From: a virus
Taxonomy: Duplodnaviria; Heunggongvirae; Uroviricota; Caudoviricetes
Length of the DNA stretch: 64,000 nucleotides
Direction: 5' to 3' (one strand)
IMG/VR virus record: IMGVR_UViG_3300012007_000008
Coordinates: 1-64,000 of that record
Part shown: positions 4,790 to 60,993 of the stretch, piece after piece
Layout of the letters: every line of letters begins with the position of its first letter
Position numbering within the stretch: position 1 is the first letter of the stretch
Notes under the pieces: generated by a model
Databases searched by the model: none
What the model was told of the DNA's origin: nothing
What the model saw: the letters and a program-made list of their open reading frames with translations, nothing else
Position numbers and translations under genes: made by a program

Positions 4790-5782
4790 TTGGAGGTGAA
4801 TATATTGACAATCCAAACAGGGAAAGCAGAGCATAGAGCAGAATCTGTGAAGAAAATTAAGGAGATGTTAAAAGACAAGCCAGATTTCGTGACTGGGTTT
4901 TATTATTACATGGTAAATTCAGGCAAGACCGCAAGTTATAGAACCCATGAGGCTTATTTGAAATACGTGATTTTATTCCTGAAAGATATAGATAAAGATA
5001 TATCTACAATTAATATGGATGATATTAGCAGATATCTTGCAGGCAAAGCATATAAAGACGACGGAACGGAAACGAGCGGCAGTTATAGGGTCGCCGTTTA
5101 TAGTGCGTTGAAAAAGTTCTTTTATTACTTGAATATTAGTGGTAAAATAAATAGTAACCCAATAGAGAATATTGAACGCCCAAAACCAAAAGCAGCGAGC
5201 CTTGTAGAGAGAACTTATCTTAAGCCGGACGAGATACAAAAATGCTTTGCATATGTCGGCAAGAGAGGGGGAACCTGGGAAAAGCGGAACAAAGCGATGC
5301 TTGTTATGTATTTCGCTACAGGCATCAGAAACACATGTCTCACTGAGATAAATGTTGACAACGTAGATTTCGAGAACAGGTGCGTCTACGTTATAGACAA
5401 AGGAACGAAGCCAAACACCGTTTATCTCGATGAAGAGAAAATGAATGTCTTAAGGGAGTGGATCGCGGACAGGGCAGAAAAGATGGTCGGGCACGCTCAT
5501 ACGAATGCTTTATTTATCAATAAAGAATACAAGAGAATCGAACCGGGAGGGGCGGCTTGGGTAATTAAGAATATTACTAAGAATATCGGACACAAAATCT
5601 CTCCACATAAAGCAAGAGCCTCATTCCTCACTAATGCATATAATTCGGGTATACCGCTTGATGTGGTGTCGAAGCTCGCAAACCACTCATCAACAAAAGT
5701 AACTTCAGATTGTTATATTCAGGGTCAAGATGAAAGGGTTAAAGAAGCTGGAATCAAGGCAACTGAATATCTTAAAATCTAA
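4790..5782 (+). CDS. tyrosine recombinase/integrase (true start possibly TTG 4805)
   Basis: C-terminal catalytic signature HKARASF (HxxR), LANHSS, and Tyr in DCYIQ; N-terminal SAM-like domain. Confidence 0.8.
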   Translation: MEVNILTIQTGKAEHRAESVKKIKEMLKDKPDFVTGFYYYMVNSGKTASYRTHEAYLKYVILFLKDIDKDISTINMDDISRYLAGKAYKDDGTETSGSYRVAVYSALKKFFYYLNISGKINSNPIENIERPKPKAASLVERTYLKPDEIQKCFAYVGKRGGTWEKRNKAMLVMYFATGIRNTCLTEINVDNVDFENRCVYVIDKGTKPNTVYLDEEKMNVLREWIADRAEKMVGHAHTNALFINKEYKRIEPGGAAWVIKNITKNIGHKISPHKARASFLTNAYNSGIPLDVVSKLANHSSTKVTSDCYIQGQDERVKEAGIKATEYLKI

Positions 5783-21254: not shown

Positions 21255-21821
21255 ATGTTAAAAGAATTTAGATACTCCGAAACATAGAAAAAATAGATCA
21301 TCAAGAGTATGACTATTCTCCATGACACGAGATAGAAGTGCAACGAGCATATACTTGATTATTTTGACAGGAAAGGAATTCCGCATAAAGAACGTGCGTT
21401 AGAGCAAGGCGATTATTCTTTTATGATTCCTAAAAACGAGAAACTATCTATCTTAAGAGACTTGATATTTGACAAGTAGATAGTTATAGAAAGGAAAAGA
21501 AACCTTGATGAAATCGCCGGGAATCTCACAAATAAAAAAGATAAAAAGACCGGAGAGATATTAGACCATCGAGACAGATTTGAAAAGGAACTAACCTTAG
21601 CTCCGCATAATAAAATACTTCTCATAGAGAATGCAGATTATGAAGACTTGTCAGAAGCCAGATATCGTAGCGAATACAATAATCAGGCTTTTATGGCAAG
21701 CCTTCATACGTTCTGGTGGAGATATAATCTGCCGATATTCTTTATGAAGAATGATAAATATTCTGGAGAATTTATTTATAAAACATTTGGATACTATTTT
21801 AAAACAGTAATTTTGAGGTAA
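21255..21821 (+). CDS. ERCC4/XPF-like nuclease, possible resolvase, with five in-frame TAG codons
   Basis: hand translation gives GDYSF...IVIERKRNLDEIAGNL (ERK motif); missed by the ORF track because of the TAGs. Confidence 0.55.
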
Positions 21822-25608: not shown

Positions 25609-28600
25609 ATGAGGGTAATCAAGAGAGACGGAAGAAAAGTTGAATTTCAAGAAGACAAGGTAAAAATAGCCGTCTTAAAAGCCTTCAAGCAAATAGACGG
25701 AGAAACAACAGAGTATGCCAGAGATAAAGCTGATGCCATAGCCAAATATATAAAAAGCATGGATAAGGATCTGAATGTTGAAGAAATCCAGGATATTGTA
25801 GAATCAAAGCTGATGGCTTGTAACCGTAAAGACGTCGCAAAGGCATATATTATATATAGAAACGACAGAAGCCGAGAGCGTGAGAAGAATAGCTCTTTGA
25901 TGAAAAAAGTTGGCGTAAAGATTAAGGCCGCTAATATTCAGAACCAGAATGCCAACGTTGATGAAAAGTCGTTTGGTGGAAGGATCGGAGAGGCCAGCGG
26001 GGAACTCCTTCGTCAGTATGCTATCGACAATCTTTTATCTGACCTTTCCCGGAATAATCATTTGAACAATGAAATCTATATTCATGACCTAGATCATTAC
26101 GCGGTTGGTGATCATAATTGTTTGTCGATTCCATTTGATAAGCTTTTAGCGGAGGGATTCAATACTAGACAGACAGACGTCCGTCCGGCTCAATCGGTAA
26201 ATACGGCTTTTCAGTTGGTTGCCGTGATCTTCCAGCTACAGTCTCTTCAGCAATTTGGCGGAGTATCTGCCACGCATATAGATCACACAATGGTGCCTTA
26301 TGTCAGGAAGAGCTTTTATAAGCATTATGTCACCGAATATTTGAAGCGCACAAAAGAGTTTCTTGATCTGGATCTGATGAATTATCTCTTTGATACGTAT
26401 GAAGATGAAATCGGGGTTGTCAGGAACAGATTCGACGATTGGGTCGAAGAACATAAAGACGAATTCACTGAGAAGACCGGACTTAGATTTGAGGATTTTA
26501 CTCTCGACAATAAAAATGGTCTTAATCAAGAGCTATTCCAAGCAGCTTTATTCGACACGATCAATGAAACATATCAGGCAGTTGAAGGAATGTATCACAA
26601 CCTAAAAATATTTGGGCGACTCAATAGTGATGTTGAGAACATAGCTGCCTAAACGGGGGAACTCTCACGGAGACAATCCCGTGCTAAATTTGCATCGTTA
26701 TAAAGCGGATACCATTTGAAATATTATAACGATACACTAAACGCCTAACGACTATCCACATGAAACGTGGAGTACACCCAAGCGGGTGGAAATGGCAGCC
26801 TCCTATTTTATAGGATGAAGATATAGTCTAATCTTTATGACAACATAAAGAAGTTCATAAGAGAACTGCATAGGAGTAGCGAACCTATGTGAATATTAAT
26901 GAAATACATTGCAAAGCAGATCAGGGAATCAATTGCCATTCACTTCTATTAATTACGGTACATGCATAACCCCGGAAGGGCGTATGGTAACAAAAGCAAT
27001 TTTAGATGTTTCAATTAAGGGTATTGGTGTGTTGCATAAAACGTCGATCTTCCCATGTGGAATATTCCAGTGTATGAAAGGTGTAAACCGTAAACCGGGT
27101 GATCCAAATTATGATCTGTTTAGGTTGGCGCTTAAATCAACGGCGCGACGTCTCTATCCAAATTATGCCAACGTAGACTGGTCTGGAAACGCCGGATACG
27201 ATCCGAATGATCCGAAAACTTATTTCTCAACGATGGGTAGGTGTAAGCTACAGCTCATCTAAAATCTTTTGAACCCCGCCCGGGGGTGTCGCAAAAGCGG
27301 CTAACGGTTAGGACTCATTGAGTTGAGACCGTGCTAAATAATCAAGAATGGTAAGTAACTAGGAGATGGTATTTTGGTTATTTACAAAATTACAAATATT
27401 ATAAATGGTAAAATTTATGTTGGTAAAACAACAAGATCTCTGAAAGATAGATGGAATCGACATATATACGACGCACTTTCGAATCGTCTTGATACACATT
27501 TTAGTAGAGCAATACGAAAATATGGCCCAGAAAACTTTTAGACTTAGATAATTGATTCTGCAAAATCAGATGAAGAGTTATCTAAAAAAGAAAAATACTG
27601 GATAAATTATTTTAACTCGTGTGAGAACGGATACAATGAAACGATAGGTGGGGACGGTGGAAATACATATATGTCGAAGACCACAGAAGAGATGGATAAA
27701 ATAAAACAGAAGATACGTTCTACGAAAATCGGAAAAGATAATCCAATGGCAAGACCAATCAAATTATTAAGCATGAAAACAGGCGAGGAACTTCATTTTG
27801 GGAGTGCAGCGTAGGTAAGAGATTATTTTGGTGAATCAAACCATAATTTTGTCACCAGAAGAGTAAAACGTTAGATTAAATATTTGTTTAAAGGCGAATG
27901 GAATATAGCATACGAAGAAGATGAATACCCTACGGATGTTAGGTTTGATAAATCAATAAGAAAAAGTTGCCACATCCTTGTATAGGATTTGTATACTGGA
28001 GAAGTCGGTGAATTTGTAAGTTATGCATCTGCGGAAAGACATTTTGGCGTTCGAAACAAAAAGTTTAGTGGAAAAGCTTACAAACACACGTGTAAAGAAT
28101 TTGTTGTTGAAAGTAGATATAAAATTACCATTCTTGATTAAAAGTGTATCGACTATCCCTGATGAATGTATGGGAGTAGGGCTGGAGATAGGCACCAGCG
28201 ATGTTTTAGGAAACGAAGCGTCTGAAAACCGAAGCGGAAGACTGCGGAGAAATCCTGCGAAAGCATAAATGAATTAACATTTAGTAGAAGATATAGTCAG
28301 TTCCTCTGGCGATAGAGGAGGGAAACGTGTAGAACTGTGAATGGGGCAGACATCAACGCCGAACCTGGAACAAACCCTCAAACGAAAGACGGGCGCGGTA
28401 ACATCTGTCCTGTGACAATTATTATGCCTACATTGGCCATGGAGGCGTCTGGAGAAGTAGGCGACAAGGACATCAATTCTTTCATGGAAATTCTCGACCA
28501 GAAAATCCATGAGGCAAAAGATATGCTCATTGAAAGGTATGAGTACATCTGTAGTCAGTCGCCGGATTCGGCTAAATTCATGTATGAGAATGGTACAATG

Positions 28601-29323
28601 CTTGGCTATAAACCAGAAGAAGGAATCCGTTCAGCTTTGAGGCACGGCACAATCGTAATAGGGCAGCTTGGCCTTGCTGAAACTCTTCAGATTTTGATTG
28701 GCTGTGACCATACTACAGATAAAGGTATGAAATTGGCAAAGGAGATCGAACAGCTTTTTAAAGATCGCTGTGCTCAGTTTAAGAAAGAATATCGCTTAAA
28801 CTTTGGTGTGTACTATACACCCGCTGAGAATCTTTGTTACACGGCCATGCAGAAATTCAGGGACCGGTACGGAATAATTGAGAATATTTCAGATAAAGAT
28901 TTCTTTACGAACTCGATACATGTTCCAGTTTGGGTTAACATGAATCCGTTTGAAAAGATCGATATTGAATCTCAACTGACGGGATATAGCAATGCGGGTT
29001 GTATTACATACACAGAGGTTGAGGGATCCGTTAAAAACAACATTGATGCTCTTGAAGAGATTGTGAACTATGCTATGGATCATGACATTCCGTATTTTGC
29101 TGTAAACGTGCCGAACGACACATGTATGGATTGTGGATACTGTGATGAAATCAATGATAAATGTCCAAAATGTGGTGGCACTAATATTCAGAGATTACGC
29201 AGAGTCACAGGCTATCTTACAGGAAATTACACTACAGCTTTCAATAAAGGCAAACAGCAAGAAGTGAATATGAGGGTGAAGCATTGGACATCAGATATGA
29301 AACTCCCTGATAACTGGGAATGA
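25609..29323 (+). CDS. nrdD: anaerobic ribonucleoside-triphosphate reductase NrdD, split gene: join(25609..26603,26902..27238,28328..29323)
   Basis: ATP-cone N-terminus; junctions restore HNL|NTLQSRSGNQLPFTSINYG and STMG|CRT...DGRGN; Gly-radical RVTGYL and CxxC..CxxC at C-terminus; exon lengths sum to 2328 nt in frame. Confidence 0.8.
26604..26901 (+). other. group I intron 1 in nrdD, no ORF
   Basis: 5' exon ends in U paired to G in P1 (CCU|AAA / UUUGGG); intron ends in G; R element AACGACTA (26747-54), S element AAGATATAGTC (26818-28). Confidence 0.6.
27239..28327 (+). other. group I intron 2 in nrdD, carrying a GIY-YIG HEG
   Basis: 5' exon ends ...GGU, intron ends G before TGT(Cys); R-like TCGACTA (28149-55), S AAGATATAGTC (28288-98). 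Confidence 0.6.
27374..28141 (+). CDS. GIY-YIG homing endonuclease, intron-encoded, five in-frame TAG codons
   Basis: SD AGGAGATGG, TTG start; MVIYKITNIINGKIYVGKTT...KYGPENF[TAG]T[TAG]IIDS...KYWINYF...GYNETIGG; NUMOD-like C-terminus. Confidence 0.65.
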
Positions 29324-41771: not shown

Positions 41772-41960
41772 ATGCAGACGATGGACGAAAGCGAAGGAGG
41801 ACGAGTGATGACTATAGAAGAGTGGGAAGAGGAACGTGCCGATTGGTGTTACGAATGCACTGGGTATGGTGATGATTACTATTACGATAAAGAAACTGGA
41901 GAATATGTCAGCGCCTGTGATGGTTGTCCGTGGAATGAAGAGCAAGAAATATATGATTGA
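41772..41960 (+). CDS. small Cys-rich protein
   Basis: CYEC...CDGC. Confidence 0.35.
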   Translation: MQTMDESEGGRVMTIEEWEEERADWCYECTGYGDDYYYDKETGEYVSACDGCPWNEEQEIYD

Positions 41961-41997
41961 TGAGAACTGGAACGACAGTGATATAGGAGGTATAAAT

Positions 41998-42960
41998 ATG
42001 AGAGCAATAACTAAAACACATACGGGAATGATTGTTTCTGACGATGAATTAAAATTAGAATATCTTTATGTCGGAGATTATGGCAAGGAAAACAACATAA
42101 AGGCAGACTTTCTTGGCTACACAAAGAGAATTGAAAAGGTCAAGCATAAGGATGTAGATATAACAGACAAACTTGTTGTAACTGTATCTTCACAAAAAGG
42201 ATGTCCTATGGACTGTGACTTCTGCGATTGTCCCAAGTATGGTTTTCATGGAAATTGTTCAGTCGTCGAGCTTATTTCAGAGATTACAACCGGAATAGCA
42301 TTGTCTGGAATCAAACACGGAAAAAGACTTAATGTACACTTTGCCCGTATGGGAGAACCCACATTTAATTCCGATGTTATAAAGGCTGCCTCCATCATAG
42401 CTACTATGGTGGAGCCGGGGAATACCGTAAGTTTTGATGAATATCACCCGGTAGTATCTACTATGATGCCTAAAAGCAACAGCCATCTTGAAAACTTTTT
42501 GCAAGAATGGGTTAAGTGGGGCAAAACATACGGTGGAGAGGATGGTTTTGGACTTCAGTTCTCTATCAATACTCTCAATGAAACGGACAGAAACCAAATG
42601 TTTAGAAACAGATCTCTTTCCTTATGGGAGATAGCTGACATTATCCAAAGGCTTCCTGCTCCAGGAAAAAGGAAGTATACCCTTAATTTTGCGGTAACAA
42701 GCAAGAGCGACCTAAATCCTGATCTTATGAATCAGTTTTTTGATAAAGAGAAGTGTATTGTTAAGATTACGCCTATCCATGAAACTCATGAGGCTGTAAA
42801 TCAGGGGTATGAAATCATCAAGAATTTTGATGTCTATGAAAAATTTGAAAGACCTCTTGTTGAAGCAGGATGGGAAGTCATCGTGTTTGTACCGTCCGAA
42901 GAGGAAGATAAAGACAGGATTACCTGTGGAAACTCACTGATTGCAAAAGCCTCAAAATAA
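41998..42960 (+). CDS. radical SAM enzyme, substrate unknown
   Basis: SD ATAGGAGG; CPMDCDFC motif; GEPTF. Confidence 0.6.
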   Translation: MRAITKTHTGMIVSDDELKLEYLYVGDYGKENNIKADFLGYTKRIEKVKHKDVDITDKLVVTVSSQKGCPMDCDFCDCPKYGFHGNCSVVELISEITTGIALSGIKHGKRLNVHFARMGEPTFNSDVIKAASIIATMVEPGNTVSFDEYHPVVSTMMPKSNSHLENFLQEWVKWGKTYGGEDGFGLQFSINTLNETDRNQMFRNRSLSLWEIADIIQRLPAPGKRKYTLNFAVTSKSDLNPDLMNQFFDKEKCIVKITPIHETHEAVNQGYEIIKNFDVYEKFERPLVEAGWEVIVFVPSEEEDKDRITCGNSLIAKASK

Positions 42961-46823: not shown

Positions 46824-46933
46824 ATCAGTTTGGAAATATTATAGCCATTGAAGATGATGGAACTCGGATACAGATTCGCGGCGATGACGGAAGAATATAT
46901 GCCGGTTGGACTAAGGACGTGGTTCTACTGTGA
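46760..46933 (+). CDS. small ORF (57 aa) overlapping the end of the 46287 gene
   Basis: MSDYKEPRIGQR...; lies at the left border of the TnpB element. Confidence 0.2.
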   Translation: MSDYKEPRIGQRCFFAFRAGINQFGNIIAIEDDGTRIQIRGDDGRIYAGWTKDVVLL

Positions 46934-47031
46934 GTCTAATTTGTGGAAATACTGGCGCTCCAGTTGGTAAAAACTGTGTTTTGTCCACGCTACAGAAGAA
47001 AAATATTCAATATCCCTGGATAGGTGGTAAT

Positions 47032-48123
47032 ATGAATAAAGGTGTTAAATTTAGAGCGTACCCAAATAAGGATCAACAAAACTTAATAAATCAAACATTC
47101 GGATGTTGTAGATTGATTTATAATAAAGGTCTCGCGATGCGAAACGATGCTTTTGAGAACGGTCAAAAGGTTGGATATACGCAGACATCTTCAATGCTTA
47201 CCGATCTTAAGAAGCAAGATGAATATTCATTCTTGAGAGATGTCGATTCGATTGCTCTGCAACAGTCATTAAGGGATTTGGATCGTGGATTCAAGAATTT
47301 CTTCGAGAAACGGACGAAGCATCCGAGATTTAAGAGCAAACATAATAATAGACAGTCGTATAGGACAATTAACCAAAAGGATAATATACGTATTGTTGGA
47401 AAATATATCAAGTTACCAAAGATAGGATATGTGAAGATTAAACAGTCAATGGATGTTGGACATATCAATAACGTGACTATTGAGAAGACTCCCACTGACA
47501 AATATTATGTAGTTCTGAATGTCGATTTCGAACCAGAGTTTCGTCAGAATGATGGATGTATGATTGGTATAGATGTCGGTATAAAGGAATTCTATTCTGA
47601 CAGTAATGGGAATATTATTGAAAACCCAAAATACCTTGAGAAGTCCTCACGTAAACTCCGCAGGGAACAAAGAAGACTCTCTCGGAAGCAGAAAGGAAGT
47701 AGTAATAGGAATAAACAGCGGATCAGGGTTGCCAGAATGCATGAGAAGATTACAAATCAAAGAAATGATTTTTTACAGAAGCAGACAACTATGCTTGTGC
47801 GTGAAAACCAAACCATCTGCATAGAGGATCTGAACGTAAGAGGGATGCTTCGTAACCATAGGCTTGCGAAGTCAATATCAAGTGCATCTTGGTCGAAATT
47901 TTTTACAATATTGGAGTATAAAGCGATGTGGTACGGAAATGATATAATTAGAGTACCGACCATGTATCCAAGTAGTCAGACTTGTTCTTGTTGTGGATAT
48001 AAAAATCCATTAGTAAAGAATCTGGCAGTCAGAGAATGGGAGTGCCCAAGATGTCATACCATACATGGCAGAGATAAGAACGCTGCGATTAATATTTTGA
48101 ACAAAGGGCTGTCAGTAGCCTAA
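47032..48123 (+). CDS. tnpB: IS200/IS605-family TnpB (OrfB); no TnpA present
   Basis: RuvC-I IGIDVGIKEF, RuvC-II ICIEDLNV, zinc finger CSCCGY...CPRCH, RuvC-III RDKNAAINI. Confidence 0.8.
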   Translation: MNKGVKFRAYPNKDQQNLINQTFGCCRLIYNKGLAMRNDAFENGQKVGYTQTSSMLTDLKKQDEYSFLRDVDSIALQQSLRDLDRGFKNFFEKRTKHPRFKSKHNNRQSYRTINQKDNIRIVGKYIKLPKIGYVKIKQSMDVGHINNVTIEKTPTDKYYVVLNVDFEPEFRQNDGCMIGIDVGIKEFYSDSNGNIIENPKYLEKSSRKLRREQRRLSRKQKGSSNRNKQRIRVARMHEKITNQRNDFLQKQTTMLVRENQTICIEDLNVRGMLRNHRLAKSISSASWSKFFTILEYKAMWYGNDIIRVPTMYPSSQTCSCCGYKNPLVKNLAVREWECPRCHTIHGRDKNAAINILNKGLSVA

Positions 48124-51899: not shown

Positions 51900-52048
51900 A
51901 CAAGAGAGCCGGGAGACTGGCTCTCTTTGTAACGGAAGGAGACAAAATGGCACAAGAAGCAATACAGGAAAACCTGTGGGGATGTTTATAGAAGTTGCGC
52001 CAGATAGAAATCGATGGTATAATTGAACCAGAAGCGGCGCAAACATTA

Positions 52049-53233
52049 ATGGCAAGTAAGAAAGAGAGGATCCTTAAGCAATACCCACCTAGGCAAGCAG
52101 CGGATGGTTCATGGTACGTAAACATCAGGTTTGCCCCAGGGCCAAACGGCAGGAAGGCAATAAGGAAGGGGAGTAAAGAAACCCTTGAAAAGGCGATTAT
52201 AGAATTCGTCGGGGAAAACTTGAAGCCAAAAGAAAAGAAAGGCACTCATTTAAGACTCAACTATAAGGATGCTTTTGAAAGATGGATCAGAGCACAACAG
52301 TACAGAAACAAGAATACAGAGGGTAGGAATCGCCGGGAATATCGCAGGTTTTTTGAGAAATTTGAATTAGGCCGTGAAATAGCTAAAATGGACATAAGGG
52401 CGATCACGTCCTTCCAGATCGAGCAGTTCATGAGCCAAGCGATCCAGGAATATGACCTGACGGCAAGAAAGGCGCTGGAAAACTACAGGATGTTTTTTGA
52501 GTTCGTGTACCGTCAGGCTGTGGTAGACAGGGTCGTTAAACCTGATGAAAATCCTTGTACGTATATCATCGAAAATAGATTCCTCCAGTTCGGAAGGTCT
52601 GAGTCCGATAGGAAAGAAGAATCAAGGACTATTGATCCTGACACAATGAGCATCCTTGACATAGCAATCAGAAAGGACCATGAGAGAAAAGAGGATTACA
52701 TGCCACCATACGCCTGTGAACTTGCGTTTCTGACTGGCATGAGGGTCGGGGAACTTAGCGGATTAACCTGGGACCACATCGATATGGACAAAGGCGCTAT
52801 CTATATAGTTCAGAGCATGAAATACGACTTGGCTACCAAAGAGTACTACATCTCTTCAACGAAAAACAAAAAGAAACGTGTGTTCCCTATCACGGATGAT
52901 ATTCGCGAACTCCTGGAAAGGATTATGTCAATTCAGGATAAGTATGGCAAAACAGAAAACTATGTCTTTTCTACGGCAAAGAAAGCATCAACGAATAGAC
53001 AGCTTAGTGACTACCTTATGAACAAGAGGAAGCAGTACGGTATCACGATTCCGGTAAGCATTCATGCAGCGAGAAGGACGCTTAACAGCAACATGGCGGC
53101 CCAGGGCGTGTCCGTGGACCTCAGGGCGTCCCTCCTCGGTCATATCCCGAGGGTAAATGAAACGAATTACACTTACGATTTGGTATCCTTGGAGGAAAAA
53201 ACAAAAGTGGTTGCAAAAGCTGGGAAACGGTGA
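52049..53233 (+). CDS. tyrosine integrase (second copy)
   Basis: TGMRVGEL box I; HAARRT (HxxR); LLGH; catalytic Tyr in NYTYD. Confidence 0.8.
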   Translation: MASKKERILKQYPPRQAADGSWYVNIRFAPGPNGRKAIRKGSKETLEKAIIEFVGENLKPKEKKGTHLRLNYKDAFERWIRAQQYRNKNTEGRNRREYRRFFEKFELGREIAKMDIRAITSFQIEQFMSQAIQEYDLTARKALENYRMFFEFVYRQAVVDRVVKPDENPCTYIIENRFLQFGRSESDRKEESRTIDPDTMSILDIAIRKDHERKEDYMPPYACELAFLTGMRVGELSGLTWDHIDMDKGAIYIVQSMKYDLATKEYYISSTKNKKKRVFPITDDIRELLERIMSIQDKYGKTENYVFSTAKKASTNRQLSDYLMNKRKQYGITIPVSIHAARRTLNSNMAAQGVSVDLRASLLGHIPRVNETNYTYDLVSLEEKTKVVAKAGKR

Positions 53234-53239
53234 TATAAA

Positions 53240-53480
53240 TGCCATATCCCCGCAAATAACAGTGGGGAAAAAGATGCGTTGGGTGGCTGAAATATCGCCT
53301 GAAACACTCAGGCTGAAACATCAAAAAACCCAGCAAATTCAATACTTTAAGTCTTCAGGATGAGGTGAGATTCCCTAATCTAAAGGCCAAAAATCCAGTA
53401 AAATCAAGGTGTTTCAGGGTATGGAAGACTGAAACATCTGAAACATATGCAGATGCAAAGATAAAAATTACATAGGAAGG
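53240..53480. repeat. attP-like region with at least five TGAAACA arm-type repeats
   Basis: CCTGAAACACTCAGG, GCTGAAACATC, GTGTTTCAGGG, GACTGAAACATCTGAAACATATG directly 3' of integrase. Confidence 0.35.
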
Positions 53481-53487
53481 ATTTCAA

Positions 53488-53530
53488 AGAAAGGAGAGTG
53501 TGCCGCTTCGTCCTTTCTTTTTTTTATTTG
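53488..53530 (+). terminator. intrinsic terminator, plus strand
   Basis: GAAAGGA...TCCTTTC hairpin then T8. Confidence 0.5.
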
Positions 53531-53544
53531 AACAATGCTTCGAG

Positions 53545-53585
53545 ACGAAAAAATAGGGTCGTCCTTTCGGATAACCCTTTTTTTG
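53545..53585. terminator. bidirectional terminator hairpin
   Basis: GGGTCGTCCTTTCGGATAACCC flanked by A6 on one side and T7 on the other. Confidence 0.5.
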
Positions 53586-53589
53586 TTTC

Positions 53590-54696
53590 TTACCGCTTTC
53601 TCAGCATTTCCACTGAACTCTTCAGTTTCTTGATCGCATAATCCAAATCTTCCTGCGTAGTATCTCTGCCTAACGTCAGGCGCAGAGAGCCGTTTGCTTC
53701 TTCTTCACTCAGCCCTATCGCGGTAAGGACATGGCTTGGTTCTCCACTTCCGGTCTCACAGGCCGATCCTGAAGAGCAGTAGATGTCGTACATAGAGAGC
53801 AGTTCAACCAGTTCTTCTCCGCGGATCCCGTCAAAGACGAAGCTGGCGTTGTTTGGCAACCTGTATACAGGATCTCCGGTCAGCTTACTGCCAGGGATCT
53901 CGGTTAAGACATTCTTGATCAGGTGTGACCTTAGTTCGATCAACCGTGGGGATTCAGTATGGATGGCGGCACAGGATATCTCAGCCGCCTTAGCCATCGC
54001 AACGATCCCGAATACGTTCTCGGTTCCGGCGCGGAGTCCTCGTTCCTGACGACCGCCCTGAAGAAGAGGATGTAGGTCGGTATCCTTTCTGACATACAGG
54101 AAGCCGACGCCCTTAGGCCCGCCGAACTTATGAGCGGAGGCAGAGATAAAGTCTACCTTGATCTCATTTACGTTCAGGATCTGATGTCCATAATACTGCG
54201 TCGCGTCAGTATGGAATTTAACGCCAAAATCGCGGCATAGAGCGGCGATCTCCTTTATAGGTTCCACAGTACCTATTTCGTTGTTGGCCGCCATAACGGA
54301 CACGAGAGGCGTGTATACGTGGCTCTCAATCGTCCTCTTTACATCGTCAGGATCTACTAGACCAGTCTCACTGACGGGTAGCGAATATATCCCTACTTCA
54401 CACGCTGGCATAAGTATCGCGTGGTGTTCGATTGGCGTAGTAATCACGTTGTCGAATGACTGGATCACTGTGTTGTTCGCCTCAGTAGCCCCTGAAGTAA
54501 AGAATATCTCTTCAGGCTCAGCACCGAGAGTATCCGCGATTGTCTACCGCGCTTGTTCTATAGCCGCCCTGGCTTCAATCCCCGGCACATAAGCAGCGGA
54601 AGGATTGTGCCAGTGTTCATATAGATACGGCAGACCCGCCTCTATCGCTTCTGGATAAGGACGGGTAGTTGCCGCATTGTCTAAATATACGTTCAT
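53590..54696 (-). CDS. cysteine desulfurase (IscS/NifS/DndA-like, class V aminotransferase) with in-frame TAG at 54544-54546
   Basis: rebuilt N-terminus MNVYLDNAATTRPYPEAIEAG...EQAR[TAG]TIADTLGAEPEEIFFTSGATEANN; PLP region SASAHKFGGPKGVGFLYV. Confidence 0.75.
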
Positions 54697-54731
54697 TATC
54701 CTTTATTCCTTTCAAACAAACATCGGAGAGA

Positions 54732-56585
54732 TCAGTTTCGCCTGTTCCTAATCACGTAAGCGAGAACCACCAACACCGCGAAAGAGAGCAGTAGGGCGCA
54801 TACAAACCTCATGATCGGAGAGTCATCGCCGGTCTTCGGTATCACGACAAGCTCTTCCGTGGCGGCCTTGATGGCCACTTCGGTGTCTCTGTTGGCACCT
54901 TTAACTTCGCTGATCTTCTTGGTTCTATGTGTTTCTTCGGTCTTTTTTCCCCGGCTTTCGCCCATGGCTCCGCCATCCTGTTTCTTCGTTTCTTCTTCCG
55001 GCGGAAGAGTTTCGTTAGGCGTTGTTTCCTTGGCCGGGATATAGACGGGGACATAGGACGGGTTATTGACTACGGGGATAGGAGAGGTAGGCGTTTCTGT
55101 CACGTTAACTTCTGTAGGCAAGATAACCGTTTCAGTTTCCGTGGTGAGAGATATCTGAGACTCTGTGATTGATATCTGAGGCTCTGTGATTGATATCTCA
55201 GTCTCTCTGAGCGATATTTGGGTCTCAGGTATAAGTTCAGAGATCGGTGGATCTGTCTCTTCCGTTTCGACAAGTTTTGGTTCCGTTTCTATCACGGGCT
55301 GTTCTGTTTCAATAACCGTCACGGGCTGTTCTGTTTCAATAACCGTGATATCAGTTTCGATTAACGGGATCTCTGTTGGTTGTTCGGTTTGAACCGGCTC
55401 AGTCTGCCTCGGCTCAGTATCAGGGATCACAATCTCTTCGGTTTCTATGATCGGAATGATTTCTGACTGTGTTTCCGACTGCTCTGAGATAAGTTCCGAT
55501 TCCTCCGACTGTGTTTCCGGTTCTTCCGACTGTGTTTCCGGTTCCGGTTCAGGGATCCGGGTAGATCCTTGGTAAGGCCACATATGTCCCTCAGCGAGAG
55601 TAGAGATATTCTGACCGAATAAACAGCCATTCGTATTGCCGCCGTTGATCTGAATATCGGCGTAAGGCGCGAGGACACACCCGATCTCTGGCGTCAGTTC
55701 CGTAGGTATCACTACTGTATTAGCGTTCGGATAGACGATACAGATCGGTTCGCTGCCGCCGTTTTCTTCACCCTGGGATAGCCCTACAACCTGAGGGTTC
55801 AGTACGGTTCCTGAGTCGAGTACGTTTATAATAGTACCTTCTCCAGTCGGGTTCCCGGTAAGCCGGATTTTTACAAAATTTCCCTGAACTAGAAGATTAG
55901 TGATAGTACCGCGCTGGATCTCTATTTCTTGCCAGTTCCAGTCTGGCTTAACAGTTGGTGCGAGAGAAGATAGGTTCTGAATACGATAGACTTCAGATGT
56001 TGCCGCCTCGTAGATCCGCGCCCAGTCCACGTAATTGTCCGTAACGATGATCGGATCGTCATGGTTGTACCAGTTCATCCCGTTCAGGGTGGTTCCGTCG
56101 ACAGTATTGGAAGAGCCGACGTAGAGTGGGATCCCGCTGTATTTGGATCTTCCGTTAGGGCCTCCTGGCTTACTCACGTATCCGGCGATGTAGCTCGGAG
56201 CGACAGTATAGGGTGAGTCTGCGAAGTTGTTATAGTTCCCGGACAGGTCGCCCTGAACTAGAAGATTGCCCATACAGTGCTGGTTGATGTCGGCGTTGCC
56301 TAAGGCTATCACACCGTAGTAGTTCATGAGATAGTCGAGAGAGTAGTCCTGAAGAGTAGGATTATCAGGAGTTTCTTCAATCAGATTCTCTGGTAATGTT
56401 TCTTCTTCGGGAGGGGTTTCGTAGTAATTATCGGGAACGATTTCTTCGTAAGGCTCAGTCTACGCCGCTTCGGTTACATACGGAATCGCAACCTTGAACA
56501 TCAGGATCAGGGTCAGGATACCGATTAAACAGATCACCGCAGACGGCACGATTTCCTTCAGGAATTCGGTCACCTTCTTTATCAT
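54732..56585 (-). CDS. LPxTG-type (IPKTG) cell-wall-anchored surface protein with Thr/Glu/Gln-rich repeats and in-frame TAG at 56460-56462
   Basis: SD AAGGAGGTGA; signal peptide MIKKVTEFLKEIVPSAVICLIGILTLILMF; C-terminal IPKTG then hydrophobic stretch then RNRRN; DNA tandem repeats 55140-55560. Confidence 0.65.
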
Positions 56586-56586
56586 C

Positions 56587-56760
56587 TTAATCACCTCCTT
56601 CGTAATTGTCCCTCACTTTCTTTTCTGAAAATTTATCCTGTTTTCTCTTTTTGCTACGGTCTTTCACTTTGATTCCGTATTCGCGGAGAGCGTAATCATT
56701 ACCATCCTATTCGGAAAAATCGAAAGCGTAGCTGGTATAGTTTCGGGTTTCTTTCTTCAT
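56587..56760 (-). CDS. small basic protein (57 aa) with one in-frame TAG
   Basis: SD AGGAGAATAACAG; stop overlaps SD of the surface-protein gene. Confidence 0.35.
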
Positions 56761-56997
56761 CTGTTATTCTCCTAAAATAAAAAAGAGCAAGAGCGCGAGG
56801 CTCCTGTGGTGTTGAGTTAATAGCATGTAATTCTCTAATAATAAATGCCTGACTAAACAGGCATTAAAATATGAGCGACGCCCCAGCTACCTGAGGATGT
56901 TGTCTATGGTATATTTAATGACCCCCAATCGGGTGTACGGGTCGCTCCTTCCGCCTTTACTTCGACTTTCGTCAGGCATTTCTCCTAAGCTAATGGC

Positions 56998-58224
56998 TTA
57001 TTCTGTACAAGAAGCAGGTCTTGTGCCAAGATTGGTTAGATCGATCTCTTCTAGACATAGTTCGTCTTTAAGAGCGAGGTATTGGTCTTCATAGACCCAG
57101 ATGTCTCCGTAGGAATAGTGGGTTTTGGCTTCAACCGCATATTGGACTGAACCTCCATACTTATCAATAGCCACCTTTAAGTATGGTAGTTTTTCTATAA
57201 ATTTACCATCGTGAAAACGTAACACTGGGCGTAGTCTTTTGTTCTTCCACGGTTCAACATCTTTCCCATGTGTTTCTTCGTCATAGTAGAATAAGAATCC
57301 TTTCATATGATGGTATATGTTCTTACTATTACACGCGTGTTCAATACTTCTTGGTGACACATTTGTATATTCTGAAGCGGCGTCACTATTCTGAAATGTT
57401 TGAATTAACTTCCCGGACATATCGTAAACACAGACCTTTTTCCGATTGGGATTTTTCTTTGGACCAAATTTTCTATTGATAAGCTTTTGAACGGCTTCCT
57501 CACTGTAGTCCGGTTCGAAAAACCAGAAAAACCCATACGCAGATATGCTAGTGCCACAACAGCATTGTCTGATTTGTTCGTATTCTTTTGGCGTATAACC
57601 ATCGATTTTATGAAGGTCGTCATATATTTGTATTAGTGTGCCATCATAATCAACTTTATACACTTTAGGATATTTTTTAACAGTATTTCCTGGAAATCCT
57701 GTATATGGTGGCATCTTGTCAACTTTTTCAAAAGACCACTGAAAACCATGAGCTTGTTTCCGATTCTTACTAGCTGCTTCACCAATCTTTTTCCCTTTTA
57801 TATGAAGAGTTTCCGCCGCCTCACTAATTGTACCCCATTCTTTGACAAAATCTCCCTACCAAGTATACTGGAATACGGATTTACTCATAGGGTGTTCTAC
57901 TCCATATAATCCATTTCCTGTGTCTCCACCTTTTGCAATATTGTATGCGATATCTGGATTTCTTAGGTCAAATTTGGCAATTAAATAAATCTATATCATC
58001 TTGGCTTGTTCTTTCTCCAGATTTTCAATAAGAATAACATGATCAAAGTTATCCCAGCCGTATTTTTGAATTGCTTTCCAAAAGTGATGAGAACCTACGT
58101 ATTGTCTTCCATTTGAACTCCATCTTTGTTTTGTGTTCTTTGAAATTCCGACATAATATTTCCCGTTAATTTTATTTCTGTGATAGTAAACACACCACCT
58201 ATTTTCACTAATATAATGTTCCAT
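56998..58224 (-). CDS. free-standing GIY-YIG homing endonuclease with two in-frame TAG codons
   Basis: N-terminus WCVYYHRNKINGKYYVGISKNTKQRW...KYGWDNF; reads through TAG into the NUMOD-like C-terminal ORF (56998-57714); RBS region is the AATGAAAGGATTATATTATG motif. Confidence 0.6.
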
Positions 58225-58253
58225 AATATAATCCTTTCATTTGACCCGTATAA

Positions 58254-58451
58254 TTATAATGGGTTTCTTTTGCAAAAATCTTTGTAATCATTCATGGCTC
58301 TTCTAATATCAGGAGTATCCTTAAAGAAGAATACATTTCTCCCAGACCCTTCACGATCAGGACGCATCCCGGCAAGAACAAACCCGCGTAGAAGAAGATA
58401 ACCAGTCATACGTTGACCAAAGATTGTTAACGTTTTTGTATCCATTTCCAT
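58254..58451 (-). CDS. hypothetical protein (65 aa)
   Basis: ATG start with SD AAAAAGGATAG. Confidence 0.4.
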   Translation of the reverse strand: MEMDTKTLTIFGQRMTGYLLLRGFVLAGMRPDREGSGRNVFFFKDTPDIRRAMNDYKDFCKRNPL

Positions 58452-58466
58452 CTATCCTTTTTGTTA

Positions 58467-58862
58467 TCATTCCTGTTTCGGCGGCTCGGTAGGTAATTCA
58501 ACAATTTTATTCGCAATTTGCGCTATTACCCCGTTTCCATTATCGGCGCGATAGGCCTACCACATCTCGTGAAAAACTTCTCTTTCCTCCGGAGAGTAGA
58601 AACCTTTCTAAACACAGGATTTGTAATTGTCCAGTAACATCATGCGTGCAATTCCAAGAGTCAATCTATCATTCGCTTCATCTCTGATACGTCGCTTCTC
58701 AGCCTCTGCGTCTTCTTTTTGTTCACGTTCCCTACGATATTCTCTGTTCTCGTCTGAAAATTTTTGCAAGCGGTGAGACAAATATCCCGTCAAAACAGAA
58801 ACAACAATTCCTACAATCGTTGTTAAAATTGCATATATCTCTGGTGTAATAACCATCTTCAT
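58467..58862 (-). CDS. membrane protein (131 aa) with two in-frame TAG codons
   Basis: SD GAAGGAGG; MKMVITPEIYAILTTIVGIVVSVLTGYL TM; TAG at 58608-58610 read through to TGA at 58467. Confidence 0.45.
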
Positions 58863-58877
58863 TTTCCTCCTTCTAAA

Positions 58878-58903
58878 TAAAGAAGACCGGGCGTTAACCC
58901 GGC
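58878..58903 (-). terminator. terminator hairpin, minus strand
   Basis: GACCGGGCGTTAACCCGGTC then TTCTTTATTT on the minus strand. Confidence 0.4.
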
Positions 58904-58934
58904 CTCTCAATCAACCCTCAGTCGGTGCCGTATC

Positions 58935-59351
58935 TTATTCGGCAGAAGTTTCCTCCTTCTTTTCCGGCTCAGGTCTTTCCACCAAATACGTGTCGATCAC
59001 CGCGAAGTCCGACATCGTCAGGTCGGCATCGGCGAACTTTTCAAGCGCATCCTCTGAAATCTGATACAGGTCAACCTCTTCAGTCTGGATAAGGATCTCA
59101 GTGATCTCTTCGACAAACTTAGGGTAGTTCTCTGACCCCTTCCTGACGACAGTCTGTTCTCCATCTTTTTCCCCGTACTTGAGAATAAGTTCATTTCTCG
59201 CCTTCTCGAAATCATCTGCAATCTTAGCTACATTTGAGAGGTTTCTGTATGCCAGGTATGCGGGTTTTCCGGTCAGTCCGGCATTTGCCATCTTCTTAAG
59301 GGTATCAGCCAGAGTGACGATCTCGTTTGTGGTCAAAACAAAGTGTTTCAT
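58935..59351 (-). CDS. hypothetical acidic protein
   Basis: 138-aa ORF. Confidence 0.45.
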   Translation of the reverse strand: MKHFVLTTNEIVTLADTLKKMANAGLTGKPAYLAYRNLSNVAKIADDFEKARNELILKYGEKDGEQTVVRKGSENYPKFVEEITEILIQTEEVDLYQISEDALEKFADADLTMSDFAVIDTYLVERPEPEKKEETSAE

Positions 59352-60099: not shown

Positions 60100-60993
60100 A
60101 TGTTTGAACTAATCCTGAAGGGAGAGAAGGGTATGAAGAGTAAGAGAAGATTGCTACTGGCGGCGTTACTGATGGTGATCTTGACGGTACTGTTAGCCGT
60201 ACCAGTCTTAGCGAAGCCGAAACTGGACGAGAAGAAGGATGAAAAATCAAATCTACAATTACATGCCGCTATATCTGTAATGAATGGAAAGTATGCAGAT
60301 ATTTATTTACCTCAAGATCATGCAACCTATCATCAGGGCGATATTTTCAAATACCACTTCTCAGTTCAAGACACATGGTCAACTTTATACACGCGAGCTT
60401 TATTCGGAATTATGGATGAAGAAGGAAATTTCCAATTCTTTAATTATACGGAAGTTATTCCAAAAAATTCCACAAAAGAATTTTCAGGAGAAGTATTAAC
60501 AAATGATATTCCTGTTGGGAAATATACATTTGGAGTATGTAACTATTGTTTTGAGGATGCTGCTGGAAATAGAGAATCATGGCGTGTAAATGTAGATGAT
60601 CTTCCGTATGTAGAGGTTGAGATTGAAATTTTACCTCCGTTACCACCGGAACCAGCACCAGAACCGGAACCAACACCTGAACCAGTTAGTTCTCCTGGCG
60701 CAGATACTATACAGAGAGAAACACCGTCCATATTTAATGTGAAAGCTAAAAAGAACAGGATTTTTGTCTTTTGGGAAAAAGTTAAAACCCCGACTCAGAT
60801 GAAATCTATTGAAATTGAATATGCTACAAATCCAAAGTTTACTAAAAATGTTAGTATAGTATCTGTTAATCCAAATAAAACGAGAACAACATTGAAATTG
60901 AAAAGAAAAAAGACATACTATATCCGAATTCGATATAAATGGAGCGACGGGGTGTCTGCGTGGAGTGCGAATAAGAAAGTTAGAACAAAATAA
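60100..60993 (+). CDS. secreted protein with Pro-rich linker and C-terminal fibronectin-III/Ig-like domain
   Basis: signal peptide MKSKRRLLLAALLMVILTVLLAVPVLA; linker LPPLPPEPAPEPEPTPEP. Confidence 0.55.
   Translation: MFELILKGEKGMKSKRRLLLAALLMVILTVLLAVPVLAKPKLDEKKDEKSNLQLHAAISVMNGKYADIYLPQDHATYHQGDIFKYHFSVQDTWSTLYTRALFGIMDEEGNFQFFNYTEVIPKNSTKEFSGEVLTNDIPVGKYTFGVCNYCFEDAAGNRESWRVNVDDLPYVEVEIEILPPLPPEPAPEPEPTPEPVSSPGADTIQRETPSIFNVKAKKNRIFVFWEKVKTPTQMKSIEIEYATNPKFTKNVSIVSVNPNKTRTTLKLKRKKTYYIRIRYKWSDGVSAWSANKKVRTK

Follow-up and report, generated by a model that had tools for sequence, protein, structure and literature searches.

A TAG-recoded, putatively sortase-anchored adhesin and a cysteine desulfurase encoded beside the integrase of a probable temperate gut phage

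Phage-borne surface proteins are usually taken as gifts to the lysogen, but in the locus described here such a protein is written, in every phage copy found, in a code that the host cannot read, which raises the question of what the protein would do and at which stage of the phage cycle it would be made. The DNA analysed is a 64,000-nt stretch (hereafter the window) of a 174,862-bp phage contig (IMG/VR record IMGVR_UViG_3300012007_000008) whose gene content includes DNA polymerase, helicase, primase, NrdD/NrdG and integrases. A megablast comparison of 51.9–58.3 kb against GenBank phages returned zero matches.

Two genes on the minus strand make up the cassette. The adhesin gene begins with an ATG at 56585 and ends with a TGA at 54732–54734 (617 aa), and the second gene, encoding a cysteine desulfurase, extends from an ATG at 54696 to a TAA at 53590–53592 (368 aa). 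Each contains one in-frame TAG, at 56460–56462 (codon 42) and 54544–54546 (codon 51) respectively, in agreement with the first-pass annotation, which had proposed recoded TAG in both. Under the standard code the adhesin gene would yield only truncated products, either a peptide of 41 aa or one of 531 aa that lacks the signal peptide, and standard-code callers split both genes, JGI protein P0001 being the 531-aa piece of the adhesin.

TAG recoding in this genome is genuine. Conserved genes are otherwise open despite in-frame TAG while their standard-code relatives lack it, and window genes that fill gaps (21255–21821, 27374–28141 and 56998–58224) contain 2–5 in-frame TAGs; among TAG-recoded gut phages, code 15 has been demonstrated by metaproteomics (PMC9523058). 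In alignments the sense of TAG is most likely glutamine. Several TAGs aligned to invariant Glu and others to Gln; a Glu meaning was considered for the former and was dropped because comparisons with close relatives and of lysin/SPOR genes favoured Gln. A count over all selected window ORFs with a length of 80 aa or more, a set that probably includes non-coding ones, gave 46 in-frame TAGs versus 532 CAA+CAG codons. TAG use in this phage is sparing, and the contrast between early and late genes is duller than in L005, a related phage locus. The genome resembles the TAG-recoded gut phages of Borges et al. in having TAG in lysis and structural genes, a TAG-free integrase and standard-code hosts, and differs from them in that TAGs also fall at invariant Glu positions and that a search of the 64-kb window and of six related loci turned up no amber suppressor tRNA. 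A host-type surface-anchored adhesin, as proposed here, was not found in the accessible part of Borges et al. (bioRxiv 10.1101/2021.08.26.457843).

Translation and composition confirmed the layout first proposed for the 617-aa protein, namely a signal peptide, a globular head, a repeat stalk and an LPxTG-type tail. Codons 1–41 (56463–56585, minus strand as for all parts of the gene) encode an apparent signal peptide or membrane-insertion segment, MIKKVTEFLKEIVPSAVICLIGILTLILMFKVAIPYVTEAA (GRAVY +1.38), which on inspection opens with basic residues, continues with a hydrophobic core of 15 residues and closes with ...TEAA; the adhesin homologues all begin with typical Sec signal peptides, and we infer a secretion signal here too. 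The TAG (56460–56462) lies between this segment and the mature protein and is kept in the near-identical relative L003. An acidic linker (aa 42–86) is followed by a choice-of-anchor-A (CAA)/pAdhesive_15 head, predicted as a beta-solenoid with a flanking helix (aa 87–340, 55566–56327), an acidic Thr/Glu/Pro/Ile/Gln-rich stalk recognised by its composition and tandem DNA repeats (aa 341–530, 54996–55565) and a Lys/Glu-rich pre-anchor segment defined by alignment and composition (aa 531–581, 54843–54995), whose motifs GGAMGESRG...VKGANRD recur in homologues.

The last 36 residues (aa 582–617, 54732–54842) read as a cell-wall sorting signal in translation and composition: IPKTG, then DDSPIMRFVCALLLSFAVLVVLAYVI, then RNRRN and the TGA stop, with 26 residues between the two motifs, 20 of which form a hydrophobic core. 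It is the sole such signal among 118 window ORFs, and the tails of homologues in phage and bacterial relatives have the identical layout with I/V/S/A-P-K/Q-T-G-D. The earlier claim of a Gram-positive sortase substrate thus stands as far as this tripartite layout is concerned but gained nothing from anchor models: Pfam PF00746 (Gram_pos_anchor) failed to match the tails of three phage proteins at a threshold as loose as E≤10 and scored a bacterial relative's tail at 15.4 bits versus a cutoff of 20, and none of the NCBIfam anchor models matched the adhesin at E≤0.1. These models appear insensitive to the PKTGD-type signal. A TLxTC-type sortase motif was absent from all window ORFs, and the adhesin would be anchored to peptidoglycan presumably by a sortase of the host.

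A homology search with the whole protein was swamped by the low-complexity stalk and gave 5 matches, and searching with the head alone, then exhaustively, produced 141 representatives. The head matched TIGR04215 and PF20597 over its full length (52.5 bits, cutoff 29, and 51.3 bits, cutoff 23.8). Structural modelling showed an ice-binding-like right-handed beta-solenoid fold, which resembles that of tapirins, although sequence identity to IBP-1 (DUF3494), Thermus ComZ, Caldicellulosiruptor tapirins and the Acanthamoeba Jonah lectin was only 9–16% and the head profile found no match among PDB sequences. The head had no PHROG family, tblastn against the 50,697 deposited phage genomes returned nothing, and a scan of IMG/VR with the full-length adhesin recovered zero relatives. 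The choice-of-anchor-A lectin Jonah of Acanthamoeba has been shown experimentally to bind cellulose (PMC6541295). By analogy the head may be a ligand-binding tip, its ligand probably a polysaccharide; in comparison with the IBP-1 ice-binding proteins, the gut setting makes ice binding unexpected.

The nearest counterparts are bacterial CAA fibrillar adhesins of gut Clostridia (TIGR04215/PF20597), such as L022 (1187 aa) and L009 (from a Eubacterium sp. MAG), which share the signal peptide and x-P-K-T-G-D tail and whose heads are 44–45% identical to this one. Their stalks are folded FctA/Cna-B-type isopeptide domains, in contrast to the low-complexity acidic repeats of the phage clade; L022, for example, has FctA isopeptide stalk domains between its CAA head and SPKTGD. 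They are also TAG-free and chromosomal (the L022 gene adjoins gyrB/gyrA), whereas members of the phage clade contain 1–28 TAGs and adjoin a desulfurase and an integrase. Heads of the phage copies are 62–72% identical to one another. The head has positions at which His, Cys and Glu are invariant (HCMG, EGH), and members of the phage clade carry Cys in place of a His that is near-invariant across the family (GC[VI]xAP versus GH[VI]xAP).

The stalk (E 22%, T 17%, P 14%, I 13%; net charge −40) is encoded by tandem DNA repeats: a 21-bp unit in 4.0 copies (55144–55226), a 27-bp unit in 2.0 copies with 100% identity (55292–55346) and a 21-bp array (55465–55545) that contains CGACTGTGTTTCCGGTTC at 55506–55523 and 55527–55544. 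The repeats reported earlier are therefore real and non-random, the 26-mer having no copies expected by chance, but its coordinates had been placed about 3–4 nt off, as the copies lie at 55294–55319 and 55321–55346. Variation in repeat number, previously anticipated, was seen directly once copy number was compared: L003 differs from the adhesin gene by three in-frame indels (144, 27 and 21 bp), all in the stalk repeats and with no others elsewhere. Over the 552 aligned codons this pair had 73 synonymous and 18 non-synonymous changes, and the dN/dS of 0.07 indicated that the adhesin is under purifying selection.

Adhesin homologues of related phages contained 1 (L003), 3 (L002), 9 (L013), 11 (L001) and 28 (L005) in-frame TAGs, and those of nine bacterial relatives contained 0; desulfurase genes had 3–6 TAGs in L001, L005 and L006. 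The two genes were adjacent at every phage locus with enough flank (the window/L003, L001, L002, L005, L013 and L015), in two gene orders, and an integrase adjoined the pair wherever the contig extended that far (the window, L001, L004, L005 and L013). The desulfurase also occurred without the adhesin (L006 and L007), and in L001 and L006 it lay directly 3′ of the lysis genes and closed their operon. Desulfurases formed two lineages that track gene order (67–95% versus 44–48% identity) while the heads stayed at 62–72%, which suggests that the adhesin gene was inserted independently next to a terminal gene already in place.

The second gene (53590–54696) has the sequence features of a group-I (NifS/IscS-type) cysteine desulfurase. 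PF00266 (Aminotran_5) matched its full length (240 bits, E 5e-71), as is typical of this group, and the family has already been catalogued in phages as PHROG phrog_12787 (E 7e-115). Its catalytic motifs, IEHHA at 89, TDATQ at 163, SAHK with the PLP-binding Lys at 187 and SSGSAC at 308, were all intact and all 3′ of the TAG. It departs from NifS/IscS group-I enzymes in being TAG-recoded, in being the terminal gene of a late operon in relatives and in falling below every NCBIfam equivalog cutoff (NifS 410 versus 531, IscS 296 versus 643 and DndA 292 versus 480 bits). The closest bacterial desulfurases, at about 50% identity, were Lachnospiraceae NifS proteins from IscR-NifS-NifU loci. The first-pass suggestion of a DndA-like enzyme gained no support: the DndA model fell short, and neither DndC/DndD-like ORFs nor other dndB–E candidates were found in the window or near the desulfurase genes of L001, L005, L006 and L007. 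Genes for NifU/IscU, MnmA or ThiI partners did not adjoin the desulfurase. NrdG carries a 4Fe-4S domain and a radical-SAM-like ORF lies at 41836–42960, and our best guess is a role in Fe-S cluster supply to clients such as the phage NrdG activase and the radical-SAM protein, although the enzyme may instead act in tRNA thiolation, as the first-pass annotation also suggested. Supply to early enzymes such as NrdG fits oddly with TAG gating. The best desulfurase match among deposited phages, GenBank MT835487.1 ('Bacteriophage sp.'), was set aside as a comparator, as its TAG-free desulfurase gene is surrounded by bacterial-type DNA with an MnmA-like ORF (SGGVDSS motif) and further long TAG-free ORFs.

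Downstream, the cassette converges with a TAG-free tyrosine integrase gene (51995–53233, plus strand; PF00589) whose product is 78% and 59% identical to the integrases of L001 and L004, both of which adjoin homologous adhesin genes. Between them lie a terminator-like, bidirectional hairpin (53547–53584; −14.6 and −16.2 kcal/mol, z −3.1 and −4.1) and, immediately 3′ of the integrase, a non-coding block (53234–53546) with direct and inverted copies of CTGAAACAT. Conservation of this block in L001, and partly in L004, together with its repeats, suggests a probable attP with arm-type sites; it matched no Rfam family and contained no tRNA. Upstream, a 57-aa ORF with one in-frame TAG (56587–56760, minus strand), kept in L003 and without PHROG match, has a stop that overlaps the adhesin start (TAAGATG), and two further terminator-like hairpins (56788–56865, minus strand) lie past a GIY-YIG gene. 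A promoter scan gave 11 sites versus 11.4 expected, none above chance. Genes beyond the cassette match PHROG families and have recoded TAG on both sides, and these phage flanks, the conserved attP-like spacer and the TAG-bearing relatives uphold the initial view that the block is phage-encoded and not flanking host DNA.

The distribution of TAG among the genes of related phages bears on when the cassette would be expressed. TAG was absent from genes for NrdD (full-length copies and N-terminal parts), NrdG, polynucleotide kinase/RNA ligase and dCTP deaminase, the C-terminal part of NrdD in L001 having two, and was present in lysin, SPOR, fibre, desulfurase and adhesin genes. TAG density in the adhesin and desulfurase genes resembled that of lysis genes. 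Integrase genes had 0–1 TAGs, the one in L001/L005 being unplaced, and integrase cores had none. This distribution agrees with a published model (bioRxiv 10.1101/2021.08.26.457843) by which recoded stops limit late/lytic genes while integrases keep the standard code. As both genes of the cassette carry an in-frame TAG, synthesis of the adhesin and desulfurase depends on amber suppression, a state proposed to belong to the lytic phase, so the pair is unlikely to represent ordinary 'conversion' genes expressed from a prophage.

Overall, we favour, with a probability of roughly 0.6, the reading of the locus as a code-gated, sortase-anchored accessory cassette carried by a large temperate phage that infects gut Clostridia (Lachnospiraceae/Eubacterium-like), in which the second gene encodes a catalytically intact NifS/IscS-type desulfurase. 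The cassette would form an accessory module at the attP/integrase end of the phage. Its Sec signal peptide would export a fibrillar surface protein, the 190-aa, highly acidic and length-variable stalk would project the head outward and the IPKTG/hydrophobic/RNRRN tail would allow the host's own sortase to link the adhesin to peptidoglycan, while the desulfurase would take cysteine sulfur for host or phage acceptors. With an in-frame TAG early in each of the two genes, their full-length products would appear only in the amber-decoding state of the phage, which would group them with the lysis and structural set and apart from the standard-code integrase. The timing of suppression that we infer would place remodelling of the surface in productively infected or induced cells rather than in quiescent lysogens.

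This can tentatively be extended to the idea that the private code serves as a switch, so that a host-type sortase-anchored lectin is displayed only once productive infection or induction has begun. If this were true, the doomed cell would stick to plant fibre, to mucus or to host cells nearby just before it bursts, raising local transmission; the adhesin would serve the phage as a 'late' factor in virulence or transmission and would not be a fitness gift to the lysogen, and the desulfurase would belong with it in one code-gated accessory set.

Alternatively, the cassette may be a classical lysogenic-conversion moron, transcribed from the resident prophage and altering adhesion or colonisation by the lysogen as SasX does in staphylococci, which we consider unlikely though deserving of attention. 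LPXTG proteins on prophages are already known; SasX/SesI is such a surface protein of phiSPbeta-like staphylococcal prophages. In both cases a large temperate phage of Firmicutes encodes a surface protein of the sortase type, and one desulfurase-bearing relative (L007) has SPbeta-type YomO/YonG/YonD genes. SasX, however, uses the standard code, is expressed by the lysogen and lacks a CAA head or acidic repeat stalk, and we know of no sequence relationship between it and this adhesin. Being directly beside the attP-like spacer and integrase, the cassette would lie at a prophage end, and this position and the bracketing terminator-like hairpins match a moron next to att/int, with the promoter count at chance. 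Its GC content of 0.49–0.51, versus a window median of about 0.40, is the highest among window ORFs of at least 150 aa, and the head is nearest to host-type adhesins. Expression in a lysogen under host translation is argued against by a TAG that precedes the mature protein; read-through would be needed in every phage copy, at 1 to 28 sites, although the adjacent integrase cores have none, and the standard code would leave only the truncated products described above. The neighbouring desulfurase, moreover, ends the lysis operon in L001 and L006. The label 'lysogenic-conversion adhesin' given in the first-pass annotation is weakened by these observations.

An improbable possibility is that the protein acts as a shield, a wall-anchored acidic brush that masks the phage receptor and blocks superinfection or the waste of progeny on debris from lysed cells, by a logic analogous to that of T5 Llp. 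The charge and variable length of the stalk, the replacement of the folded isopeptide domains of bacterial relatives by low-complexity acidic repeats and expression bound to the phage's own code state would all suit such a role. A passive brush would nevertheless have no need of a head that belongs to a ligand-binding family and is so strongly conserved in identity and dN/dS.

Desulfurase and adhesin might instead form one functional unit, for example in sulfur-dependent maturation of the Cys/His-rich head, or the desulfurase might be DndA, a pair of ideas that we regard as decidedly improbable. Adjacency in all six independent loci with enough flank, surviving a swap of gene order, the invariant His/Cys/Glu positions and the family-wide His to Cys replacement in the phage clade are consistent with a single unit, and the DndA model does give 292 bits. 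The desulfurase is nonetheless found without the adhesin, its two lineages follow gene order while the heads do not, and the DndA option encounters both the missed equivalog cutoffs and the lack of DndC/DndD-like ORFs in the window or in neighbouring loci. Finally, the reading of the TAGs as true stops in decaying pseudogenes or in host DNA beside a prophage, which would account for the splitting of both genes by standard-code callers and the 531-aa JGI call, is exceedingly improbable and was rejected, as dN/dS is 0.07 across an alignment that includes the part upstream of a conserved TAG, frames of relatives stay open through up to 28 TAGs, the catalytic motifs of the desulfurase are intact beyond its TAG and recoded phage genes lie on both flanks.

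In summary, a cassette that is best read as code-gated and sortase-anchored has consequences for annotation as well as for phage biology. Standard-code annotation shortens recoded adhesin genes, here to a protein without signal peptide, and because it truncates them, surveys of adhesins or auxiliary metabolic genes in phages of gut Clostridia miss or misread such genes. If the code gate works as proposed, this locus would provide a testable case of a phage remodelling a Gram-positive surface during lytic growth, and the model in which recoding regulates late genes would then cover cargo for host interaction in addition to lysis and structural genes.

The adhesin gene was found to run on the minus strand from an ATG at 56585 to a TGA at 54732-54734 and to encode 617 aa with a single in-frame TAG (56460-56462, codon 42). 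The first-pass annotation, which had described a phage-encoded, TAG-recoded, LPxTG-type repeat protein beside a cysteine desulfurase, was right at the annotation level, and segment-by-segment composition agreed with its proposed layout: aa 1-41 form a hydrophobic N-terminus (GRAVY +1.38), aa 42-86 an acidic linker and aa 87-340 the globular region (the head); these are followed by a 190-aa stalk (Glu 22%, Thr 17%, Pro 14%, Ile 13%; net charge -40), a Lys/Glu-rich spacer, and IPKTG followed by a 20-residue hydrophobic stretch and RNRRN at the extreme end. A 57-aa ORF at 56587-56760, whose end overlaps the adhesin start (TAAGATG), contains one in-frame TAG, is conserved in the related locus L003 and had no family match.

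The head matched the choice-of-anchor-A (CAA) family (TIGR04215, 52.5 bits; cutoff 29) and the Pfam 'putative ice-binding-like adhesive domain' (PF20597, 51.3 bits; cutoff 23.8). No solved structure was found for the head by sequence alone, and an AlphaFold2 model built with 30 homologues (pLDDT 91, pTM 0.91) confidently predicted a beta-solenoid with one long flanking helix, for which the best 18 Foldseek matches were all IBP-1 ice-binding proteins. Diatom adhesive-trail proteins also contain CAA domains, and the Acanthamoeba 'Jonah' lectin, with CAA as its sole domain, binds cellulose (PMC6541295); because of these analogies, our best guess is that the head would bind a polysaccharide-type ligand. 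Polar positions conserved in the head (HCMG, G-H/C-x-x-A-P, GNxNG and EGH; aa 103-106, 302-308 and 332-334, window 55566-56327) included one that is His across the family but Cys in every member of the phage clade, and this conservation speaks for a defined site that may bind a metal or ligand rather than for general surface stickiness. The C-terminal anchor signal, which we infer by pattern, was the sole sorting-type signal among 118 window ORFs, and the same layout of x-P-K/Q-T-G-D, hydrophobic stretch and basic tail occurred in every phage and bacterial relative. The Pfam Gram_pos_anchor model did not detect the adhesin tail and gave just 15.4 bits (20 required) on a bacterial relative. No sortase signature was found in the window ORFs and a host sortase therefore has to be assumed.

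Scanning 1.84 billion representatives exhaustively with HMMER identified 141 relatives of the head. The head itself matched no PHROG family, and tblastn against 50,697 deposited phage records gave no match for it. Relatives at 25-45% identity came from bacteria and were long surface proteins whose stalks contain isopeptide domains (Cna-B or FctA) and whose anchors are of the PKTGD type, and named genomes carrying head relatives were Eubacterium sp., Candidatus Blautia equi, a Lachnospiraceae bacterium and Candidatus Stoquefichus; one bacterial relative (L022) adjoins gyrB/gyrA. None of nine bacterial relatives (490 to 4488 codons) contained an in-frame TAG. Relatives above 60% identity formed a small, exclusively metagenomic clade with a TAG-recoded phage context for every member whose DNA was obtained, and in-frame TAGs in their adhesin genes numbered one in the window and L003, three in L002 (the code-15 ORF call adding one more in an upstream extension), nine in L013, 11 in L001 and 28 in L005.

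A tblastn search of three window proteins against all fetched loci placed the adhesin gene beside the desulfurase in the window/L003, L001, L002, L005, L013 and L015, with an integrase convergent with the cassette genes in the window, L001, L004, L005 and L013. The adhesin gene precedes the desulfurase in the window, L003 and L005, where desulfurases were 67-95% identical to that of the window, and follows it in L001, L002, L013 and L015, where desulfurases were just 44-48% identical; heads were 62-72% identical across both gene orders. The desulfurase occurred without the adhesin gene in L006, as the last gene after a lysin and a SPOR protein, and in L007, a standard-code SPbeta-like relative. 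The simplest reading would make the desulfurase a long-established gene at the end of this phage group's late operon and the adhesin gene a mobile accessory that may have inserted on one side of it or the other, in the position preceding attP and the integrase. The two genes may be functionally coupled, but their linkage can be explained without this. In L002 (= L014; 352-2416) an IS200/IS605 element (Y1 transposase and OrfB/TnpB) occupies the place of the first ~213 desulfurase codons, leaving residues 214-366 alone upstream of the adhesin gene; the adhesin gene there is still open, and the desulfurase appears disrupted.

The tandem DNA repeats claimed for the stalk were present where none are expected by chance, comprising a 21-bp unit in four copies (55144-55226), a perfect 27-bp duplication (55292-55346) and the 18-mer CGACTGTGTTTCCGGTTC twice within a 21-bp array at 55465-55545. 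A previously listed 26-mer proved a genuine repeat placed 3-4 nt away from its actual positions (55294-55319 and 55321-55346). Comparison of the adhesin gene with that of L003, an ENA contig, gave 73 synonymous and 18 non-synonymous differences over 552 aligned codons (dN/dS ~0.07), with the TAG and signal-peptide region kept. The only three indels between them, of 144 bp, one 27-bp unit and one 21-bp unit, were all in-frame and in the stalk, giving adhesins of 617 aa (window) and 553 aa (L003). The predicted repeat-number variation was therefore borne out between natural variants; the adhesin gene is functional, with a stalk of variable length.

As had been proposed, both cassette genes use recoded TAG, with one in-frame TAG each (codons 42 and 51). 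Gap-filling window genes at 21255-21821, 27374-28141 (GIY-YIG) and 58224-56998 (GIY-YIG) contained 2-5 in-frame TAGs and the window polymerase, helicase, primase, NrdD/NrdG and integrases none. Gene callers gave Gln for TAG because table 15 was the TAG-sense table available. In favour of Gln, one TAG in the L001 desulfurase falls at the invariant Gln of TDAxQ (96/96 homologues), lysin and SPOR comparisons between L001 and L006 paired TAG with Gln at five conserved sites and with Glu at one, and in the close pair L001/L013 TAG stood opposite CAG/CAA four times and GAG/GAA twice. In favour of Glu, TAGs occur at two desulfurase columns with Glu in 95/96 homologues, at the invariant Glu of the EGH motif in the L005 head, and, in the endonuclease at 58224-56998, at a position that is Glu in two other GIY-YIG sequences and that we take, by I-TevI, to be the catalytic Glu site. 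The TAGs at Glu sites lie at window 54544-54546 and 57994-57996, within L001 8785-9930, and within L005 2320-4818 and 5379-6512. Judged from these alignments, Gln is the best single assignment, but given the unexpected set at (nearly) invariant Glu, TAG may not be read only as Gln in this lineage.

In related phages, TAG was absent from NrdD (full-length in L006, N-terminal part in L001), NrdG, polynucleotide kinase/RNA ligase and dCTP deaminase; the C-terminal part of L001 NrdD had two, both in a poorly aligned stretch. Integrases had none or one; the single TAG of the window integrase lies upstream of the TTG start, and those of L001 and L005 have one each. Many TAGs occurred in the lysin, SPOR protein, fibre, desulfurase and adhesin. 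This distribution by gene class matches what has been described for recoded gut phages (10.1101/2021.08.26.457843), whose integrases avoid in-frame stops and in which recoding is proposed to confine late/lytic proteins to a suppressor-active phase. No suppressor tRNA was found in the 64-kb window or any related locus. Following that published model, the adhesin and desulfurase would be made in productive infection or after induction, not in a quiescent lysogen. The earlier suggestion of lysogenic conversion is accordingly doubtful, as the standard code gives no full product (a 41-aa peptide or, from the next ATG, 531 aa without signal peptide) and both genes are TAG-rich in relatives, like late/lytic genes. 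We keep a classical moron, or lysogenic-conversion adhesin, as an unlikely alternative because the cassette is attP-proximal and flanked by terminators, and its two genes exceed all other window ORFs in GC (0.49 and 0.51 vs a median near 0.40).

Gene content identifies the window as the part of a large phage genome devoted to replication and nucleotide metabolism. It encodes a 1150-aa DnaE-type polymerase, DnaB helicase, primase, split NrdD, NrdG, a TnpB-type transposase and two integrases. The standard-code ORF of 531 aa has a database twin, which lies on a 174,862-bp JGI contig. A 356-bp non-coding block (53234-53589) separates the plus-strand integrase (51995-53233) from the desulfurase, contains three direct CTGAAACAT copies and inverted copies, and has a bidirectional terminator-like hairpin at its end. 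The block is conserved in L001 (integrase 78% identical) and partly in L004, had no tRNA or Rfam match, and is probably attP with arm-type integrase sites. Same-strand genes past the cassette (56998-59351) had PHROG matches, two with recoded TAGs. The cassette is thus phage-encoded, as first proposed, and a host-flank reading is ruled out, since the intact attP-like block indicates that the contig is the phage form.

Other features of the window were also recorded. The nrdD halves (25609-26652 and 28337-29323; window 25609-29323) enclose a group I intron (Rfam RF00028, 70 bits, 26594-26850) and, 3' of it, the GIY-YIG homing-endonuclease ORF at 27374-28141 with five in-frame TAGs. The second tyrosine integrase/recombinase (330 aa, 4790-5782) and the 397-aa transposase-family ORF (phrog_506, 46930-48123), TnpB-type by our reading, lie inside the replication region. 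Encoded at 60100-60993 on the opposite strand is a second protein predicted to be exported, with a signal peptide, a Pro-rich linker PPLPPEPAPEPEPTPEP and no Pfam match; a weak match to a minor-tail PHROG (E 1.4e-7) covers its last 60 residues.

The desulfurase (minus strand, ATG 54696 to TAA 53590-53592; 368 aa; TAG 54544-54546, codon 51) is a full-length class-V aminotransferase (PF00266, 240 bits) with the group-I motifs IEHHA, TDATQ, SAHK (PLP lysine) and SSGSAC (catalytic cysteine), all downstream of the TAG. Its best model was NifS (410 bits), it missed the NifS, IscS and DndA equivalog cutoffs, and it belongs to phrog_12787, a phage family already catalogued without function. Identities were 65-95% within the phage clade, then dropped to ~50% for bacterial enzymes, whose contexts were IscR-NifS-NifU loci of Lachnospiraceae, a stand-alone position beside nrdR and, in MT835487.1, an MnmA-like neighbour within bacterial-type DNA. 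These mixed contexts mean that ancestry leaves the sulfur acceptor unfixed. The suggested search for partners found no NifU, MnmA, ThiI or dnd gene adjoining the desulfurase in any phage locus. Potential Fe-S clients in the window were a radical-SAM-like ORF and NrdG, which has a 4Fe-4S domain. We rank Fe-S supply first, tentatively, followed by tRNA thiolation as a weaker candidate and by DNA phosphorothioation as very improbable, with the remainder unassigned. In MT835487.1 ('Bacteriophage sp.'; L026, 38330-40647) the desulfurase lacks TAG and is followed by an ORF carrying SGGVDSS, a motif typical of MnmA, and other long nearby ORFs are TAG-free, with apparent transporter and sugar-metabolism genes; this record may be misassigned or include host flank.

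In summary, the window adhesin would work like Gram-positive fibrillar adhesins and SasX-type phage cargo but differs from both in stalk architecture, code dependence and probable expression phase. Our analysis adds a phage-specific clade of host-derived CAA adhesins with up to 28 sense TAGs, whose genes always sit with a desulfurase at the integrase end and have lived in recoded genomes long enough to gather those TAGs, and it changes the likely timing of their expression.
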